The translations under genes were made by a program, and so were the position numbers. From an uncultured Gemmataceae bacterium (GTDB lineage: Bacteria > Planctomycetota > Planctomycetia > Gemmatales > Gemmataceae), in contig CAVVPN010000011.1 in the NCBI GenBank assembly GCA_963750165.1, positions 1,056,001-1,120,000 of the forward strand: a stretch of 64,000 nt of DNA. The letters run 5' to 3'. Under the pieces are notes generated by a model that saw nothing but the letters and a program-made list of their open reading frames with translations, had not been told where the DNA came from and did no database searches. Below, in pieces: positions 10,765-28,250 of the stretch; position 1 is the stretch's first letter, and every line of letters starts with the position of its first letter.

Positions 10765-11222
10765 CAGCAACCAGACCAACCGCTGTTGAGAGCAGGCGAT
10801 CGGCGGCTCCGTGCGGGGCGAACGGGTGGCCGGCCAGGCCGAGCGCCAACCGCCCTCGGCGCGGCCGCAGCGTGGCGACAGTAGGCACCAATCCAATGCT
10901 ATCAGGCGCCGAAGGGGGCACCGAACAGTGTACCGCCAGCCGGTCAAGGAACCATTGCGATTCGCCAACGGTCGGTCGCGATCGAGGCCGCTCGGAGCGC
11001 ACCGACGTCGTCGGACTGCCGCCCGGTTCCGTCTCACCGGGCGTAAGACTGCTGCTGTATCGCCGCCAGGACGCGCTGCCTCCCGCAGACCCGATGAGAA
11101 TGCCAGGCTTCGGACGTACACTTGGCCGGACAAACCATTCGTATTCAGTACGGCTAACCTGCTCCGGTCCGCCCCACCGAATGCAATCTGGCTCGCGATG
11201 GTGCGCTCTCCGGTCACATCGG

Positions 11223-12762
11223 CGAATGGCACTTAGTTCTTTCTAATGCCTTTGCGCATCTCCTGTTTGGTCTCGCGCCTCGGTTTTCGGAGGAAGCCGT
11301 AGTGCTTGGGCCGCCGTTTCCGTTGCCGCGGCTCATACCGGTCCGGCCGGTCCGCGACGCGATGACTGGCAATGGCCGCGAGGATCTGCTGGTAGAGTTC
11401 CCTGCGCAGGGCGGCGTCCTGCTCGCCCCGGAGTGCCAGCACGGGTTGGAACGCCGCCAACGTTTGCAGGGCGCCCTTGAAGCTGATCGACCTCGGTTCG
11501 AGGCCGTGCGCGCTCGCCGCCTGGGCCATGACCGTGCGGACCAAGTTGTAGGCCAGGAGGTGCGCCCAGATCTCCTTGCGCACCATCTCCGGCGTCTTGC
11601 ACCGCAGGACGCGCATCTGCATCGTCTCTTTCAGGGATCTCAGATCAAGTTCGGCATTCCAGCGCGCACGGTAGAGCTGCCCCAGGTCCTCCTTGGTAAT
11701 CTCTGCCGGGTCCAGCAGCGTCGTGGCCACGATGAGGGTGGTGATGCGGAAGCCCGGCTGCTCGACCTGCACCCGGCACTCCCGGACGGTCAGGGACTCG
11801 GGCAGCATCGCGTACGCGGCGCGATCGATGGTGCGGGGCTTGGGCGGCTTGGGCCACACGACGACGTGGTCGCCTTTCCCCAGGCGCCGGCCGCGGCGGA
11901 AGTCCGCCCGGCGGTGCGACGAGAAGCGGCAGACGCTGTCGACGCCGCGCTCCTTGAGCAGGACCATCTCCGTCCAGGCGCACAGCAGCCGGTCGGCGAG
12001 CACGACGTCCCCAGGTCGGAACAGGTCCAGCAGGGTGCGCAGCATGCCCAGTTCGCTCTGCCCCTTGCCCGCGTAGCGGCACAGGGCCAGGTCAAGGACC
12101 GCGCCGCAGGCCAGCGAGAAGACGGCGGCGATCCGCGCCAGCGGGAAGCCCAGGCCGGGCTTCTGCGTGCCGGGCTGCGGGTAGTCGCGCTGGTTCGCCG
12201 GTGTATCGGGCATCGACGCCGACGAGCCGTCGTAGACGTGGACGCGGCGGCGCTTCCACAGCCACTGCGGCTCGACGGCGGCGTCCAGGGCGCGCCCCGT
12301 CTGGCGGGCCACGTCGGCGACGAACGCTTCCGGCAGGCGCTGGCGGGCCTGGCAGTAGGCGCCGGTCTGGGCCGAGCAAGGGCTTTGCCCCCGGGCGAGG
12401 CGGTGGGCCAGCAGGCGCGCGACGGCGGCGCGGCAGGAGTGGTCGGCGCTGAGGACCTGGCCCAGGAAGACCCAGAGCGTGACCAGCGGGGAAAAGATCC
12501 GGTCCAGCCAGCCGGTGAGGGTGGCCAGCGCCTGGGCGATGACCCCTTCGGTGAGGACGTCGGTGAACGGCAGGTCGCCGTCCTGGAGGAATTGCCGCCT
12601 CAGGAAGTTCGCCTGAGCGCGGAAGGGCCTTGGTTTACAATGGCGCATCGCGGGCCTCCTTGGCGGGGATGGGATGGTTGCCAAACTCCATCTTCCCAAG
12701 CGAGGCCCGCTTTGCCTATGTCACCTTCTCCTTTCGGCTTACGGAGATCTATGTGCCATTCG
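11223..12762 (-). mobile_element. IS4-family insertion sequence, copy A1
   Basis: Imperfect terminal inverted repeats cgaatggcacttagttct / agatctatgtgccattcg bracket a DDE transposase. Nearly identical to 20503-22042. Confidence 0.92.
11233..12648 (-). CDS. IS4-family DDE transposase
   Basis: YDGS, LADR, and the LYRARWNAELDLRSLK (Y-R-E-K) signature. Confidence 0.93.
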   Translation of the reverse strand: MRHCKPRPFRAQANFLRRQFLQDGDLPFTDVLTEGVIAQALATLTGWLDRIFSPLVTLWVFLGQVLSADHSCRAAVARLLAHRLARGQSPCSAQTGAYCQARQRLPEAFVADVARQTGRALDAAVEPQWLWKRRRVHVYDGSSASMPDTPANQRDYPQPGTQKPGLGFPLARIAAVFSLACGAVLDLALCRYAGKGQSELGMLRTLLDLFRPGDVVLADRLLCAWTEMVLLKERGVDSVCRFSSHRRADFRRGRRLGKGDHVVVWPKPPKPRTIDRAAYAMLPESLTVRECRVQVEQPGFRITTLIVATTLLDPAEITKEDLGQLYRARWNAELDLRSLKETMQMRVLRCKTPEMVRKEIWAHLLAYNLVRTVMAQAASAHGLEPRSISFKGALQTLAAFQPVLALRGEQDAALRRELYQQILAAIASHRVADRPDRYEPRQRKRRPKHYGFLRKPRRETKQEMRKGIRKN

Positions 12763-20436: not shown

Positions 20437-20502
20437 CATCCCGAGGGCGGCCATCGCCGGCTGCTGAAATACATCTGGCGTTGCGCGCTTCGGACACATC
20501 GC

Positions 20503-22042
20503 CGAATGGCACTTAGTTCTTTCTAATGCCTTTGCGCATCTCCTGTTTGGTCTCGCGCCTCGGTTTTCGGAGGAAGCCGTAGTGCTTGGGCCGCCGTTTC
20601 CGTTGCCGCGGCTCATACCGGTCCGGCCGGTCCGCGACGCGATGACTGGCAATGGCCGCGAGGATCTGCTGGTAGAGTTCCCTGCGCAGGGCGGCGTCCT
20701 GCTCGCCCCGGAGTGCCAGCACGGGTTGGAACGCCGCCAACGTTTGCAGGGCGCCCTTGAAGCTGATCGACCTCGGTTCGAGGCCGTGCGCGCTCGCCGC
20801 CTGGGCCATGACCGTGCGGACCAAGTTGTAGGCCAGGAGGTGCGCCCAGATCTCCTTGCGCACCATCTCCGGCGTCTTGCACCGCAGGACGCGCATCTGC
20901 ATCGTCTCTTTCAGGGATCTCAGATCAAGTTCGGCATTCCAGCGCGCACGGTAGAGCTGCCCCAGGTCCTCCTTGGTAATCTCCGCCGGGTCCAGCAGCG
21001 TCGTGGCCACGATGAGGGTGGTGATGCGGAAGCCCGGCTGCTCGACCTGCACCCGGCACTCCCGGACGGTCAGGGACTCGGGCAGCATCGCGTACGCGGC
21101 GCGATCGATGGTGCGGGGCTTGGGCGGCTTGGGCCACACGACGACGTGGTCGCCTTTCCCCAGGCGCCGGCCGCGGCGGAAGTCCGCCCGGCGGTGCGAC
21201 GAGAAGCGGCAGACGCTGTCGACGCCGCGCTCCTTGAGCAGGACCATCTCCGTCCAGGCGCACAGCAGCCGGTCGGCGAGCACGACGTCCCCAGGTCGGA
21301 ACAGGTCCAGCAGGGTGCGCAGCATGCCCAGTTCGCTCTGCCCCTTGCCCGCGTAGCGGCACAGGGCCAGGTCAAGGACCGCGCCGCAGGCCAGCGAGAA
21401 GACGGCGGCGATCCGCGCCAGCGGGAAGCCCAGGCCGGGCTTCTGCGTGCCGGGCTGCGGGTAGTCGCGCTGGTTCGCCGGTGTATCGGGCATCGACGCC
21501 GACGAGCCGTCGTAGACGTGGACGCGGCGGCGCTTCCACAGCCACTGCGGCTCGACGGCGTCGTCCAGGGCGCGCCCCGTCTGGCGGGCCACGTCGGCGA
21601 CGAACGCTTCCGGCAGGCGCTGGCGGGCCTGGCAGTAGGCGCCGGTCTGGGCCGAGCAAGGGCTTTGCCCCCGGGCGAGGCGGTGGGCCAGCAGGCGCGC
21701 GACGGCGGCGCGGCAGGAGTGGTCGGCGCTGAGGACCTGGCCCAGGAAGACCCAGAGCGTGACCAGCGGGGAAAAGATCCGGTCCAGCCAGCCGGTGAGG
21801 GTGGCCAGCGCCTGGGCGATGACCCCTTCGGTGAGGACGTCGGTGAACGGCAGGTCGCCGTCCTGGAGGAATTGCCGCCTCAGGAAGTTCGCCTGAGCGC
21901 GGAAGGGCCTTGGTTTACAATGGCGCATCGCGGGCCTCCTTGGCGGGGATGGGATGGTTGCCAAACTCCATCTTCCCAAGCGAGGCCCGCTTTGCCTATG
22001 TCACCTTCTCCTTTCGGCTTACGGAGATCTATGTGCCATTCG
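20503..22042 (-). mobile_element. IS4-family insertion sequence, copy A2
   Basis: Same TIRs as 11223-12762. Only two substitutions were noticed relative to A1. Confidence 0.92.
20513..21928 (-). CDS. IS4-family DDE transposase
   Basis: Protein identical to the A1 transposase except for one A/D change. Confidence 0.93.
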   Translation of the reverse strand: MRHCKPRPFRAQANFLRRQFLQDGDLPFTDVLTEGVIAQALATLTGWLDRIFSPLVTLWVFLGQVLSADHSCRAAVARLLAHRLARGQSPCSAQTGAYCQARQRLPEAFVADVARQTGRALDDAVEPQWLWKRRRVHVYDGSSASMPDTPANQRDYPQPGTQKPGLGFPLARIAAVFSLACGAVLDLALCRYAGKGQSELGMLRTLLDLFRPGDVVLADRLLCAWTEMVLLKERGVDSVCRFSSHRRADFRRGRRLGKGDHVVVWPKPPKPRTIDRAAYAMLPESLTVRECRVQVEQPGFRITTLIVATTLLDPAEITKEDLGQLYRARWNAELDLRSLKETMQMRVLRCKTPEMVRKEIWAHLLAYNLVRTVMAQAASAHGLEPRSISFKGALQTLAAFQPVLALRGEQDAALRRELYQQILAAIASHRVADRPDRYEPRQRKRRPKHYGFLRKPRRETKQEMRKGIRKN

Positions 22043-22390
22043 GCACAGCGCCTGCAGCGTCGGCAGCCCCACCCGCGGGCCCAGCAGCCCAATCAGCGCC
22101 AGCGCCCGGTTGCGCAACTCCCGGTCGGAGCGTTGCGCCGGCCGGCCCTGCGCTGCCGCCCGCAGCCGGTCGCGCCGCCAGCGCGCCTCCCAGCGCCTCA
22201 GTGTCCGCAGGGACAGCCCCAGGCGTGCAGCCGCCTCCGCCCGCGTCAGCCCCAGCCGGGCGGCCCAGCGGCAGAAGGCCACCGCCCGGGCGCGCACGGC
22301 CCGCTCCCGCTCCCGGGCCGCCCGCTGCCCCGCCGGCCCGCGCCGCCGCGGTTCCCCGGGCGGTTGCCCGGGGGCCGTCAGCCGTTGCAC
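22043..22390 (-). pseudogene. N-terminal HTH part of a probable second integrase/transposase, cut by IS4
   Basis: LTRAEAAARLGLSLRTLRRWE...GRP..RS, a transposase-type HTH. The frame runs into the IS4 end at LQALC. Assignment as an integrase is an inference. Confidence 0.55.
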
Positions 22391-22809
22391 CCGCCGCTCC
22401 TCGCGGCGGGCACCCGCCGGGTCCGCGTCGCCCCCGCCGCCCGGCCGCCCCGGCGGCGCAGCCGCGGCAGCAGCAGGGCGATCTCTTCGCGGACCTGGGC
22501 GGCGCGCAAGCCGATGCGCAGCTCGCGCACCTCGGCCTCCAGGGCCGCCACCCGCGCGTCCGGCCCCGCCGGCGCCCGCGCCGGCCGGCCCGCCGGGCGC
22601 GGCTCCAGCCCCGCCAGGGCCGCCGCCAGGGCCTGGTCGCGCAGCGCCCGCAGCCGCCGCTCGCCCAGGCCCAGCGGCAGCCCCGCCTGGGCCACCGTCC
22701 GCCTTCCTGACAGCACGTCCAGCACCGCCAGCAGCCGCGCCTTGGCCAGCGCCGAGCCCTCCAGCCGCCCCACCGCCGCGTCCCACTCCGGCCTTCGTCC
22801 CCGCGTCAT
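22378..22809 (-). CDS. HTH protein with coiled coil (transposase OrfA-like)
   Basis: VLDVLSGRRTVAQA...LGLGERR...LEPRPAGRP...VAALEAEVREL. Confidence 0.7.
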   Translation of the reverse strand: MTRGRRPEWDAAVGRLEGSALAKARLLAVLDVLSGRRTVAQAGLPLGLGERRLRALRDQALAAALAGLEPRPAGRPARAPAGPDARVAALEAEVRELRIGLRAAQVREEIALLLPRLRRRGGRAAGATRTRRVPAARSGGCNG

Positions 22810-22903
22810 CGACCCGCCCTCCAGAAAAACGCAAATGCCGGGGCAGGCGACCGCCGCCCGCCCCGGCCAACTCTAGCTTCGGGGGACGTCGCCGGGCGCA
22901 CGG

Positions 22904-23473
22904 TCAGGGCGGGGCCGGCGTGGGCGGGCACTCCGGGGCCGCCGGTTCGGCCGGGGCCTCGGCGGGGGCGGCGGGGGCGGCGTCCCCGAACGGCTGCAGC
23001 AGCGCGGCCATCTTCAGGGCGCGGACGGTGGGGCGCCGCTTGCGGGCGGCGGGCGGCTCGGGCGGCGCCGGCAGCGTCAGGCCGACCGCCTGCCGGGCGG
23101 CGCGGACCAGGGCCTGCTGCCGGGCGCACTCCCGGCGCAGCCGCTCACACTCGCGGCGCAGGTCGGCGGGCTCGGCGGCCGGGGCGTGGCCGCGCCGCCG
23201 GGGCTCACAGGCCGCCACCAGCCCGGCCACCGCCCGCAGTTCCAGCTGGTAGTAGCGGGCCAGCGACAGCCCCAGCGCCCGGCCGGCCTCCGCGGGCCGC
23301 AGACTGCCGGCCAGCACCTCCAGGATCGTCGCCGCCAGTCGCCGGGCCGCCGGGCTGGCTCCCGCGAACGGCGTCGGGTCCGCCGCGGGTGCCGGCGCGG
23401 GTGCCGCCGCGGGCGGCGCGGGCGTGCCGGCGGGCGGTCGGCCGCGCCGCCGGGGGGAGGGGGTGGGGCTCAT
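22904..23473 (-). CDS. HTH protein with coiled coil, similar to 22378-22809
   Basis: ILEVLAGSLRPAEAGRALGLSLARYYQLE...CEPRRRG...LRRECERLRRE. ATGA-coupled to the integrase stop. Confidence 0.72.
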   Translation of the reverse strand: MSPTPSPRRRGRPPAGTPAPPAAAPAPAPAADPTPFAGASPAARRLAATILEVLAGSLRPAEAGRALGLSLARYYQLELRAVAGLVAACEPRRRGHAPAAEPADLRRECERLRRECARQQALVRAARQAVGLTLPAPPEPPAARKRRPTVRALKMAALLQPFGDAAPAAPAEAPAEPAAPECPPTPAPP

Positions 23474-24929
23474 GGCGCACCCCCTTCCGGGCTCGGCCCC
23501 GCGTCCAGCCGCCGCAGGCCCCCGTCCAGCGGCGAGGCCCCGGGCTCCGGCGGCTCCTCCGCATCCCCCGGGTGCCCCGCCACGATCCCCTGTGGGCACA
23601 CCGGCGCGGGCAGCGCCGCCGGCGGCCCGCCCGGCGCCGCCGGGGCCGGCGCGGGCGGGGCGGCGAGGTCCACCTCGCGGCGGCCGCCGCCCGCGTCCGT
23701 AAGGATGACGCGCTCGCCCTCGGCGTGCAGGCTGAACGGCTGGCCCCCCACCTGCCCCGTCAGGTAGAACGGCGCCCTGGGCAGCCCGTGCCGGGCCAGC
23801 TCCAGGGCGTTGGCCGCCACCCGCGCCCGCAGCGTCCGCAACACCTCCGGCGCCGCCCCGAAGTAGCGGTCGGCCGGCACCAGGTTGCCGATGCCCTGGT
23901 GCGGCCGCTGGAAGTTGTAGTGGTCGATGAACAGCCCGACGCGCTGCCGGGCGTCGGCCAGGTCCACGAACACCGCCGCCTCCAGGCACTCGCGCCAGAG
24001 CGTGCCCCAGAAGCGCTCGATCTTGCCCAGCGTCTGCGGCCGGTGCGGCGAGGCCACCACCTGGCGGACGCCGCGCTTCTCCAGCTCCTTCGTGAAGGCG
24101 CCCTTGCCACGCCAGGTGACGTACTGGCTGCCGTTGTCGGTGAGCACCTCCGCGGGGGCGCCGTGGACGGCTACGGCGGCGCGGAAGACCTCCAGGACCA
24201 GGGGCGTGGACTGGCTGGCGTGCAGGCCGTAGCCGACCAGGAAGCGGCTGTGGTCGTCGAGGAAGGCGACCAGGTAGACCCGGCGGTTCTGGCGCTTCAG
24301 GACGAAGGTGAACAGGTCGGTCTGCCACAGCTGGTTGGGGCGGCGCGCTCGAAGCGGCGGTCGTGGTCGGGGTGGGGCCTGGTCGGCGCCTCCTCCAGCT
24401 CGTAGCCGGCCTCGCGCAGGGCGCGGGCGACGGCCTGGGGGCTGGCGGCCAGGGCGGGGCCGCGGAGCAGCAGGGCGGCGATGCGCTCGGTGCCCCAATC
24501 GGGGTGGGCCTCCTTGAGCATGAGGATGGCGCGGCGGGTGGGCTCGGGCAGGCGGCTGCCGGCGGGGGCGCCGCGGGCCTTGTCGTCCAGGCCGGCGGGG
24601 CCGTCCGTCTCGAACTTGCGTTTCCAGGCGTACAGGGTATGCTTCGAGACGCCGACCAGGGGGGCGAAGTCGCCGGCGGGCAGGCCGCTGCGGCGCCAGG
24701 CGTCGAGGACGAGCAGGCGCTGGGCGGCGGTCAGGGGCGCGGCGGGGGTGTCGGGGGGCCGGGCGAGGCGCCGGCCGCGGGCGGGCTGCTGCAGGCGGGG
24801 CCGCTCGCGGGGCGGTTCGTCGGGCGGGGCAACGTCGGCCGGCGGCACTGGCGGGCCGGAGTCGGGGGCCTGAGGGGCGGGCCGCGGCACTACCGCGGCC
24901 GGGTCGGGGGTGGGGGACGGGGCGGACAT
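23470..24929 (-). CDS. DDE (rve) integrase/transposase, IS481-like, with N-terminal HTH; frameshift near 24340
   Basis: SD aaggagg; GVSKHTLYAWK HTH; PNQLWQTD, FLDDHSR, LTDNGSQY, GKIERFWGTL, YNFQRPHQG. Confidence 0.88.
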
Positions 24930-25027
24930 GCGCCCTCCTTTCGTGCGGGGGGACCCGCGAAGGGGAGGGCCGAATTCCGGCACCCATTTCCAGCGATCAG
25001 ACTGCCATTATTTCGGCGAGGAGGACA

Positions 25028-25959
25028 GCGGCTGGGTGGCGGCGGGCGCGCTGCGCATCGGCGAGCGGCTGCTGGGCGAGCGCGGGCCGGCGCGGGTGCT
25101 GTCCCTGACGCGGCGGCCGGGGAAAGAGCCGGTCTACAACATCGAGGTCGAGGGCGACCACTGCTACCGAGTGGGGGAGTGCGGACTGCTGGTGCATAAT
25201 AATTCGCTTTCACCAAACGCAGTGAGCGGAAAGTCGATTTTGGAAGGCAGGGGACAATGTGTCATTGAAACCGTGGACAACATCAATGTGACCACCTCGT
25301 CTCGAGGTGTGAGTCCATTTACTATGCCCCGAGACAATACGAATCAACTTGTCAACAAGACGGCTTTTTACATTCTCCGCGGGAGTATGGCCGGTTTCAA
25401 CGGGGCGGTATTGAAAGTTGGGTCGGCTCCATCGAGGGATCCAGCAGGAAGGTGGCTTGATTACAGAGTGGCCTATCAAAGGTGCGACCAATACGTAATT
25501 ACTGCCTGGTCGATTGACATGCCACACTCAAACAACAGTCCGGCGACGCAGATGCTTGAACGAGCGCTTCGCGCGGAGTTTTGCCCGACTTCTAGCTCAT
25601 GTCCATGGGATAATACTCGAGAGGCAGGTAAGCCCTTCGGGAGAAGGCTGGGAAGGCTCGGTTCCGGAGTTCCTTTTGAAGCTCAGTCAAGTTGTTGCTG
25701 GATCGATTGCTTTACATGGATGGCTGGCCAACCACAACCATCAAGTTCATCACTCCGGCCGCAAACCGAGCAAGAGTGGGGAACGTTTGTGATGCGGTGG
25801 AAACAAACTAGAATGGCCCAGGGGAGTGACACAGCAACAGATGAGGAAGTTGGGCGGGTCTTTTACAACGGTGCCGGCCGCACGACCATTCTTTCATGGC
25901 GACAATTGCGTGCGGCGCAGGTCGGAAAATCGTGGGCTACCATTGTCGCTGAAGCGTGA
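25028..25959 (+). pseudogene. Orphan polymorphic toxin tip: C-terminal half of a Hint domain plus a GIY-YIG/URI-like nuclease toxin
   Basis: GWVAAGALRIGERLL...VYNIEVEGDHCYRVG...LLVHN is the pretoxin Hint C-half. It is followed by AFYILR...VLKVGSA...GRW..Y...LERAL. GC content drops sharply after HN. Confidence 0.8.
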
Positions 25960-25966
25960 GGATGAG

Positions 25967-26326
25967 ATGCAGACCTCTAAAGCTTTTTGGTCAGTTCTTT
26001 GGGATGTTCTGAGCCGGGCTAACGGAAATGAAGAAGCATTGAAGGGTATTCTTCAATCCCTTCCAAGACAGATCATTATTGATTTTTCTAACGAGTTTAG
26101 GCGAGCTATGACTAACTTGTATGAGATTGAATATGAGGCTTCAGAAGATTACCAGAAAGACATTTCTGCGCTCATCGTGAGTAAGGGGAAAGAGTATTAC
26201 GACGAGATCGTTAACCATCCGGAACGAGTTCCTCACGAGATTGATCCCAATGGGCCTTACTTTCTTCACGTTCCTGCAGAAGTTTTTCGGGATCGCTTCG
26301 GAGAAGAGTTGATGGACCAGAGCTGA
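25967..26326 (+). CDS. DUF4240-like putative immunity protein
   Basis: FW......A......L...L..L....IIDF...F......LY......SED...D....IVSKG..YY..IV.HP. Lies directly downstream of the toxin and shares its low GC. Confidence 0.7.
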   Translation: MQTSKAFWSVLWDVLSRANGNEEALKGILQSLPRQIIIDFSNEFRRAMTNLYEIEYEASEDYQKDISALIVSKGKEYYDEIVNHPERVPHEIDPNGPYFLHVPAEVFRDRFGEELMDQS

Positions 26327-26647: not shown

Positions 26648-28250
26648 CGAATGGCGCTAGCTTAAAAGTATTTCGACCGATTCTGCGGCAGTTTGGCGAC
26701 GTCTCGGGGTTGCATCAGTCGGGTCCCCGGCTTCGGCCTGCGCTTGCGCGCCCGCGGCTCCCAGCGCCCCGGGCGGTTGCCGACGCGGTGGTAAGCGATG
26801 GTCGCCAGCATCACGTCAACCAACCTCGCCCGGCCCGCAGGCCGCGCCGCCTCGATCTTCGGCGCGAACGCGGTCAGGGCTTGCTTGGCCCCCTTGAAAC
26901 TCACCTTGCGGGGCTCGACGTCGTTCTCGGCCGCGGCGACGGCCATCGCCGTGCGGAGCAGGTTGTACGCCAGCAGGTGAGCCCAGATCTCCTTGCGCAC
27001 CATCTCCGGACTCTTGCAACGCAGGATGTCCATCTTCATCACCGACTTGATCGAGCGGATGTCGATCTCCCCCTCCCACCTGCGCTCGTACAGGTCACCT
27101 ATCTGCGCGCCGCCTATCGACTCGTCGAGGATGGTCGTCACCACCTTGAACTGCTCGGCGCGGTTGTCCTTGTCGCGGGCGTCGACGCTGACCTGCCGCA
27201 TCGGCTGGGCCTTCGGGTAGGTGCGGTACTGGTCCCCACTCATACCGTGCGGCTTGTTGGGCCGCTGCCAGACGATCACGTCGCCGTCGGGCCCGCTGTG
27301 CACCGTCTGGGTCCCGACGCGCTGGTACTGGGCGCGGGCGACGACGTCGATGCCGCGCTGGCGCAGCTCCCAGATGAGGAAGTAGTCGTCGAACAGGGCG
27401 TCGGCGACGACCACGTCACCGGGTTGGAGGGCGCCGTACATCTGCCGCAAGAGGGTGGTCTCGCCGGTGCCCTTGCCCGCGTACGGCGCGATCGCCAGGT
27501 CGTGGCAGGCACCGCTCGCCAGAGACAGCAGCACGGCGACCCTGGCCAGCGGGAAGCCGATCCCCGGCTCCTGCACCACCGGCTGCGGGTAGGCCGCCTG
27601 GTTCTCTTCCGTGTCGGGCATGGAGACGTGGGAGCCGTCGGCGATGAACACGTCCCGCCCGTTCCACTTCCAGCCGTCGGGGAGGCTCTCCTGCAGCTGC
27701 TGGGCGGTCCGCCTGGCCAACGAGCGCAGGCGCGTCAGTGGGGACGCGGGCGCGGGCGTTACAGTAGCTGGCGGCGTTGGGCGAGCAAGGCTCCAGGCCG
27801 GACGCGGCGCGGTGGGCGATGATGCGCGAGACGGCGTCACGGCAGCTTTTATCCTCGCTGAGGACCTGGCTGAGGAAGCCCCAGATGGTGGTGACAGGGC
27901 TGAACAGACGGTCGCGGAACTTGACGCCGTGCTCGTCGAGGGCGTCGAGGATGCTGGCCTGGGTCAAGGACTCGGCGAAGGGCAGTCCTTGGTCGCGCGT
28001 GAATCGGGCGCGGACCTCCTGCAGGCTGGTCATGGGGGTGCCTCGAAAGTCGTGGGTAAGGTCGTCGATGGCAGAGGCGCAACCCCGAAAGCGGTGCGAC
28101 GTCGGGCGGCGTAGCAGGGTAAAGGCGAGGCAATGCCGGAGTTGAGGGCGCAGCGCCACAAGGCCCAGCCCGGACAAAGGGGGCGCGAGCACGATCGCCT
28201 TGCTTCTTGATTGTACGCGCGGCAGCGCGCCTTAAGCTACGCGCCATTCG
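26648..28250 (-). mobile_element. IS4-family insertion sequence B (diverged relative of A1/A2)
   Basis: TIRs cgaatggcgctagcttaa / ttaagctacgcgccattcg. Confidence 0.88.
26662..28033 (-). CDS. IS4-family transposase; frameshift near 27740
   Basis: DRLFSPVTTIWGFLSQVL (ORF 27416-28192) joins ADGS...VADA...LYERRWEGEIDIRSIK (ORF 26662-27840). Confidence 0.88.

Follow-up and report, generated by a model that had tools for sequence, protein, structure and literature searches.

We analysed a 64,000-nucleotide stretch of DNA from an uncultured Gemmataceae bacterium, hereafter the window (G000:C11:1056001-1120000, G000 being the genome and C11 the contig). It holds the left half of a four-gene transposon with two integrases of the DDE type, which an IS4-like insertion sequence (IS) has cut at position 22042. 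Position 25027, where the transposon meets a polymorphic-toxin gene, is the conserved left terminus of an element of about 3.9 kb, and the ends of this element family are joined to polymorphic-toxin loci more often than the ends of other ISs. The element is real and unusual. A preliminary description of the locus had suggested that it targets conserved Hint-coding DNA; this narrow idea proved wrong but the broader link to toxins holds, and the mechanism behind it is one that we infer. The features of the locus, in window coordinates and with helix-turn-helix abbreviated as HTH, are as follows.

24963..25027, minus strand: left (L) end of the element, with the terminal TGT at 25027 and repeated GAAAT/GGAAT sub-sites
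23470..24929, minus strand: tnp1, a DDE integrase with HTH_32, rve and rve_3 domains (domain profile matches)
22904..23473, minus strand: orf2, an accessory gene with an HTH and a coiled coil, paralogous to orf3 (profile comparison)
22378..22809, minus strand: orf3, an accessory gene with an HTH and a long C-terminal helix (weak HTH_28 profile match and predicted fold)
22043..~22390, minus strand: 5' fragment of tnp2, the second DDE integrase gene, truncated by the IS4-like element (HTH fragment; intact in the twin copy)
25028..25204, plus strand: C-terminal half of a PT-HINT domain, ending in HNN (PF07591 positions 66-137, E 9e-6)
25205..25959, plus strand: putative toxin tip of 250 amino acids with low G+C content (GC), assigned from its place after the Hint domain
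25967..26326, plus strand: DUF4240 gene, a likely cognate immunity gene by its position (PF14024 above cut-off)
20482..22042, minus strand: IS4-like IS with a DDE_Tnp_1 transposase, which truncates the element and is no part of it (twin at window 11202-12762)

The TGT terminus at 25027 is the same in a twin copy on the same contig (C11:220040), which differs from the window copy at 3 of about 2985 bases, and in related ends of G000, and it fits a weight matrix derived from 31 left ends of relatives. The preliminary description was thus right about the terminus, and the repeated sub-sites that it mentioned are present in the sequence. As it also stated, the terminus adjoins Hint-coding DNA just ahead of the GWV motif, from PF07591 position 66 onward. 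The N-terminal half of PT-HINT is absent at the junction, and the expectation that it would lie beside another element end was not borne out in the 93%-complete G000. The twin copy carries an intact tnp2 with an rve domain (C11:222686-223813), confirming the suspected second integrase; outside its L end lies an IS66 fragment, recognised by eye, and not Hint. GC is 71-88% over 22043-25027 and about 50% in the neighbouring block. A one-base frameshift in tnp1 near 24346 occurs in both near-identical copies, and a diverged copy on contig C12 is in frame there; the frameshift may be real or a homopolymer sequencing error common to both copies. The outward frame from the ATG at 24928 exists as described but is unremarkable, some outward ATG-open frame being found at 43 of 83 left ends; the idea of a functional fusion from it fails, being at chance level, and in the twin it enters IS66 out of frame. 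Two further ideas, that the right (R) end provides a start codon or that tnp2 is read through, were likewise dropped because junction frames vary. The putative tip had only matches of at most 0.90 in the Atlas search (T5orf172-like, a weak lead), and a longer homologue was not found. Apart from the element, the direct IS4-like copies at window 11202-12762 and 20482-22042 (99.6% identical) flank about 7.7 kb of cargo, and both copies and a third IS at 26650-28250 apparently lie within the same short palindromic repeat.

Throughout the family the order is L end, tnp1, orf2, orf3, tnp2, R end, and the end consensus has repeated internal sites and TGT...ACA termini. Element length is 3.4-4.8 kb (median 3.9 kb). 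The tnp2 stop codon lies about 8 nucleotides from the R terminus, and the R end is 47 nucleotides beyond tnp2 residue 372 (109 distinct ends, 146 loci with room). At least 944 of 7998 candidates scored were tnp2 relatives, and tnp2 was present in 11 of 61 related genomes and 35 of 401 genomes of the phylum. In 160 fetched loci, comprising the best 80 of 196 and the best 80 of 572, tnp1 was upstream of tnp2 in 105 of the 111 with room, and orf2 lay between tnp1 and orf3 in 100 of 101. The gene order thus recurs in homologues across Planctomycetota and in other phyla; record titles name Planctomycetota, Acidobacteriota, Gemmatimonadota and others. Loci L298 and L299 duplicate L107 and L098 and were not counted as independent replication. 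A search of sequencing runs listed none of RNA; DNA runs had shares of 0.05-0.06, and their contigs came only from relatives.

Both integrases have their own N-terminal HTH. Among 80 non-redundant pairs, the catalytic motifs are kept in 71, 80 and 79 tnp1 and in 79, 75 and 80 tnp2 sequences; mean identity is 74% for tnp1 and 43% for tnp2, and the two co-vary (Mantel rho 0.34, p 0.001). The predicted structure of a relative's Tnp1 has an HTH-HTH-RNaseH-beta barrel arrangement (predicted local distance difference test, pLDDT, 70; predicted template modelling score, pTM, 0.47), and its best Foldseek matches are IstA (E 8e-12) and TnsB. The rve integrase and the two similar HTH/coiled-coil genes of the preliminary description were recovered as such: an orf2 profile matches orf3 with best E-values of 1e-13 to 1e-18, and orf3 is predicted to form an HTH and a long helix, with some HTH_Tnp_1 matches among its homologues. 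A fold search with orf3 gave weak HTH matches only, its PDB sequence search gave nothing, and no NCBIfam family matched orf2 or orf3. A Walker A motif occurs in just 1 of 84 element interiors, in agreement with the earlier remark that no AAA helper ATPase is visible in the surviving part.

The link to toxin loci was assessed in a census of flanks no shorter than 150 nucleotides, 102 distinct ones at R and 62 at L, from which G000 and G003 were left out and for which RHS and Hint sequences from these two genomes served as blastx references. RHS matches were found at 7 of 102 R flanks, every one reading away from the element, and at 2 of 62 L flanks, both reading toward it. There were none at 58 IS3/IS481 flanks or at 32 and 58 within-genome IS flanks (0/148 in total; Fisher p 0.0017 against the R flanks), and random windows gave 7 in 3000. 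A search for IS4 copies yielded just 9 matches, which did not serve as a control set of their own. With an RHS-core hidden Markov model and a motif added, these detectors having been picked after the data were seen, the number of R flanks within RHS genes rises to 10 of 102, each of them in outward orientation, compared with 0 of 136 controls. Pfam adds a Tle1-like tip and a Tox-REase-7 tip, and all 12 R flanks come from different records. A symmetric coding score of junction open reading frames (ORFs) placed 35 outward and 4 inward at R ends (p 3e-6 against a 202:170 null); at L ends it placed 17 outward and 8 inward, with 37 not called (p 0.23 against the same null). RHS loci show a polarity, the 5' part at L and the 3' part at R. 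In L158 and L225 both flanks are RHS by blastx, co-directional and with the middle missing, and the same was seen by eye in L146 and L229; in L130 a family copy lies within an RHS array. In G003 two R ends, which belong to one duplicated cassette, lie in Hint and a third is upstream of a Hint, and in G457 one of seven R flanks is RHS by Pfam and four more are tip-like by eye. In G000 a miniature element stops 17 codons before the RHS DPxG motif and is followed by a tip and a leucine-rich repeat (LRR) gene, and at a solo R end an Imm35-like gene begins 3 nucleotides away. These results uphold the proposed association with toxin loci as RHS enrichment at element ends, but not as targeting of Hint, and the end that faces the toxin is usually R, not L as in the window.

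Two side observations concern these loci. In L092:4033, L148:8059 and L229:4206 the ATG of the tip ORF stands 0-1 nucleotides from the R terminus after a G-rich stretch, which is not clearly above chance. On a 58-kb contig of G000, a dense toxin-tip array has eight tandem PT-HINT matches (G000:C6:8785-30000), and no family end was detected there.

The idea that the element recognises the sequence of Hint-coding DNA and uses it as a safe harbour would suit the junctions within Hint in the window and in G003, but we regard it as very improbable. None of the 102 R and 62 L flanks matches the Hint profile (0/164), which refutes it unless some subfamily is Hint-specific, and in G000 just 1 of 11 Hint matches is at an element end. 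A fixed Hint codon is not seen either: the G003 junction is about 5 codons upstream of that in the window, RHS junctions fall at many positions, and the twin adjoins IS66. At either end the first bases of the flank are weakly biased in a similar way, with no target consensus beyond that.

A second explanation dispenses with a toxin link as such: the element would prefer low-GC islands, which in these bacteria carry many toxin and immunity genes, and the duplications of old copies would have been lost. Mean GC of R flanks is indeed 54% near the end against about 60% further out, all 17 R flanks in G003 are at 28-46%, and in the window IS4 copies flank the same cassette. However, a control IS that dwells in low-GC DNA has target duplications in 15 of 16 copies and RHS or Hint at 0 of 32 flanks, near-identical and hence recent copies of our family are without duplications, and several RHS flanks have GC values of 0.56-0.62, which are not low. 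We consider this explanation quite unlikely.

The preliminary description had proposed a search for target-site duplications, and these are almost absent. No duplication of 3-12 bp was found in 69 complete copies, a search up to 200 bp with mismatches allowed gave one 3-bp match in 70, and 2-bp matches (3 of 69) are at chance level. In G003, a complete genome, none of 11 two-ended miniature elements has a duplication. Control ISs do have them, in 15 of 16 copies in G003 and in 3 of 7 IS3 copies in G000. The G003 control (L241-L256) is a 1.86-kb IS with a strict CTA-containing target and a 5-bp duplication in those 15 copies. Many loci are on short-read contigs, where collapsed repeats could mismatch flanks; the absence holds likewise in G003 and in multi-megabase contigs. 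Furthermore, left and right flanks are not contiguous with each other. Where both flanks had matches, no collinear homologue spanned the junctions, save one non-adjacent pair, and no convincing in-phase gene continuation across the element was seen in 32 copies; blunt insertion into an intact gene was rejected on this basis. Long duplications of the IS1202 type were also rejected, none being found up to 200 bp. Two ends abut at four junctions, separated by 1-2 bp; one of these junctions is R-L and lies at a contig end. Such abutting is a pattern known from copy-out elements.

The target sequences at the two ends of a copy are unrelated, and the likeliest reason is that the ends were joined separately. 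We give an even chance to a mechanism in which such joining replaces a stretch of the target instead of duplicating a few base pairs, a tip and its immunity gene are left behind an end, and retention of immunity sets the polarity. A copied-out circle or donor could transfer its ends one by one; alternatively, insertion could be followed by deletion of adjacent DNA from one end. The two HTH proteins may substitute for the absent ATPase. IS21 requires its ATPase to produce correct target duplications, according to part of PMC10122671, and in E. coli adjacent deletions that grow over time remove duplications, according to part of PMC11708052. With a toxin gene as target, the delivery scaffold would be removed and the tip and immunity gene left behind an end; an element in an RHS gene likely deletes the delivery part and spares the toxin tip and the antidote gene. 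Copies that face the immunity gene are predicted to be kept, since the toxin would still arrive from kin and read-through from the element would sustain expression of the antidote, and R polarity would reflect this need for continued expression. The Hint-tip-immunity remnant in the window would represent a product of this kind, found at L, which is the less usual end.

The absent duplications and absent RHS middles would also follow if the element entered breaks or recombination intermediates already present, which are common at RHS loci prone to rearrangement, and the host made the deletions. IS5 and IS481 without duplication are reported at large deletions and duplications in part of PMC11708052. 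This leaves the L-5'/R-3' polarity unexplained, though, and both integrases keep their DDE residues, while the similar weak first-base bias at both ends is as for enzyme-chosen targets; we hold break insertion to be unlikely.

Several points weigh against separate end joining with immunity-driven polarity. RHS content was not matched in choosing the genomes of the control ISs, about 88% of R flanks lack an objective toxin match, the orientation score gave no call for 63 of 102 R flanks, and the control IS of G003 likewise lies in low-GC DNA. One further copy (G457 C9) has a 4-bp match in cis, and G003 has two 5-bp matches in trans (0.5 expected), which suggests that concerted events may occur at times. 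In the one R end scanned, no outward consensus promoter was found inside it and a terminator-like hairpin lies about 75 nucleotides inward. Selection alone fails to explain why RHS enrichment is absent at other ISs, and with no empty site at hand, one-step joining at two sites and insertion followed by adjacent deletion are indistinguishable. A 5-bp repeat lies on the inner sides of outward-facing ends 6.6 kb apart (G003:C1:38934 and 45569), a pattern suggestive of a DNA circle as target that could, given two such matches in trans with 0.5 expected, be chance.

Some loci are inside out. In G013 two are arranged as orf3-tnp2-R, cassette, L-tnp1-orf2; in L030 an RHS core, a tip and the gene after it lie within such an arrangement, and no outer ends were detected. 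G000 has two places where outward-facing ends surround 2.6-3 kb of tip and LRR genes, one of them within a 20-kb island that has a tRNA-Gln repeat at its borders. Miniature elements and low-GC cassettes form arrays in G003, where one R-Hint-tip-immunity cassette occurs at two loci with different upstream flanks. These inside-out loci fit either one-ended rearrangements or capture. In a capture scenario, the two integrases would act one per end and the HTH pair would guide them to RHS-type genes; tip-immunity cassettes would be excised and parked between outward-facing ends with the antidote expressed, carried to new loci and built into orphan arrays, the machine being in some genomes inside out around a replaceable cassette. 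The variable cassettes of the two loci each in G013 and G000, the RHS tip held in L030 and the G003 arrays with their repeated cassette speak for it. Against it, we saw no case of a tip joined again to a scaffold by way of an element end, so that the shuffling of tips onto new scaffolds proposed earlier was not observed, and many flanks are ordinary genes or other ISs. In addition, the duplicated block of G003 extends on through other repeats, so other ISs or homologous recombination could have moved it. Dedicated capture is in our view possible but not probable.

Other observations concern these islands and miniature elements. The 20-kb island (L001 = G000:C11:205823-225688) is flanked by direct repeats (45 bp) of the 3' end of tRNA-Gln and carries DUF3854/DUF927 primase-like and xre genes. 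Related segments occur at several places in the genome, a C12 relative having an integrase-like gene, and the island looks like a satellite-type integrative element. A 559-bp miniature element with R-type ends on both sides is present at L001:9038-9597 and L002:10386-10944, 99% identical in unrelated flanks. At L024:8259-8935 and other G003 loci, a 675-bp hybrid miniature consists of a family R end fused to one end of a different TGT-ended element, among whose fragments is an AAA_22 ATPase; there are 25 such X ends in G003. At L110:3794-8355 two inverted family copies surround a 4.5-kb cassette that starts with an RHS-type tip.

The family works like a DDE element of the IS21/IS481/Tn7 clade, yet it fails defining tests of each, and the earlier statement that no standard IS family fits held for those tested. 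With IS481 it shares an rve-type DDE transposase and TGT...ACA termini; against NF033577 (cut-off 224 bits) tnp1 of G003 scores 209, that of three relatives 226-233, and tnp2 70-85. IS481 elements have a single transposase ORF, whereas the family has two integrases and two HTH genes. The IS3 profile NF033516 gives 136 and 78 bits, below its cut-off of 160; in IS3, an HTH/zipper OrfA is fused to OrfB by a programmed frameshift. TGT ends, a TnsB-like fold and two transposition enzymes recall Tn7-like elements. TnsA has a restriction-enzyme fold, whereas both family enzymes are DDE integrases, and there is no TnsC, TniQ/TnsD or 5-bp duplication. H-repeat/ISAs1 elements beside E. coli Rhs loci offer an analogy. 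IS21 is similar in the IstA-like predicted fold of the relative's Tnp1, in repeated sites in both ends and in tandems, which the abutting-end junctions resemble, spacer length included, but the family has no IstB-type AAA+ ATPase and instead a second DDE enzyme and two HTH proteins. Tandem activity of IS21 is described in part of PMC10122671. IS481 target duplications are 2-15 bp, mostly 6, according to part of PMC10045372, and the family lacks duplications of this kind (0/69 at 3-12 bp).

IS1202, as described in part of PMC10132070, ends in TGT/ACA, has one more binding site internally and encodes a TnsB-like transposase; the targeting of some members is fixed in orientation, and a few leave no duplication. 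All of these have counterparts in the family. An IS1202 element has one transposase, a length of 1.5 kb and a defined target (dif sites at 5 bp), whereas the family has four genes, 3.4-4.8 kb, variable RHS junctions and no target at a fixed distance. Orphan toxin-immunity arrays likewise consist of a partial RHS core or Hint, a tip and then a small or HEAT/ankyrin/LRR gene, classes that part of PMC3482391 includes among immunity proteins. Models of orphan modules in part of PMC5361080 invoke homologous or homology-facilitated illegitimate recombination; unlike the family loci, they involve no end of a transposon as 5' boundary. A literature search that did not extend to ISfinder, most subscription journals or supplements turned up no paper describing this family or linking it to RHS.

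What is new here is the RHS-locus polarity of the family and its inside-out loci. Two conserved integrases without an ATPase, leaving almost no duplication, suggest that ends are joined in a way not yet described, which might be a natural tool for replacing a segment. The parts of the literature consulted give only recombination models for the origin of orphan toxin-immunity modules. The R end of a widespread transposon as a recurrent 5' boundary of such modules is a concrete and testable route to them, and the capture machine, if true, would be the first case of a transposase giving rise to them.

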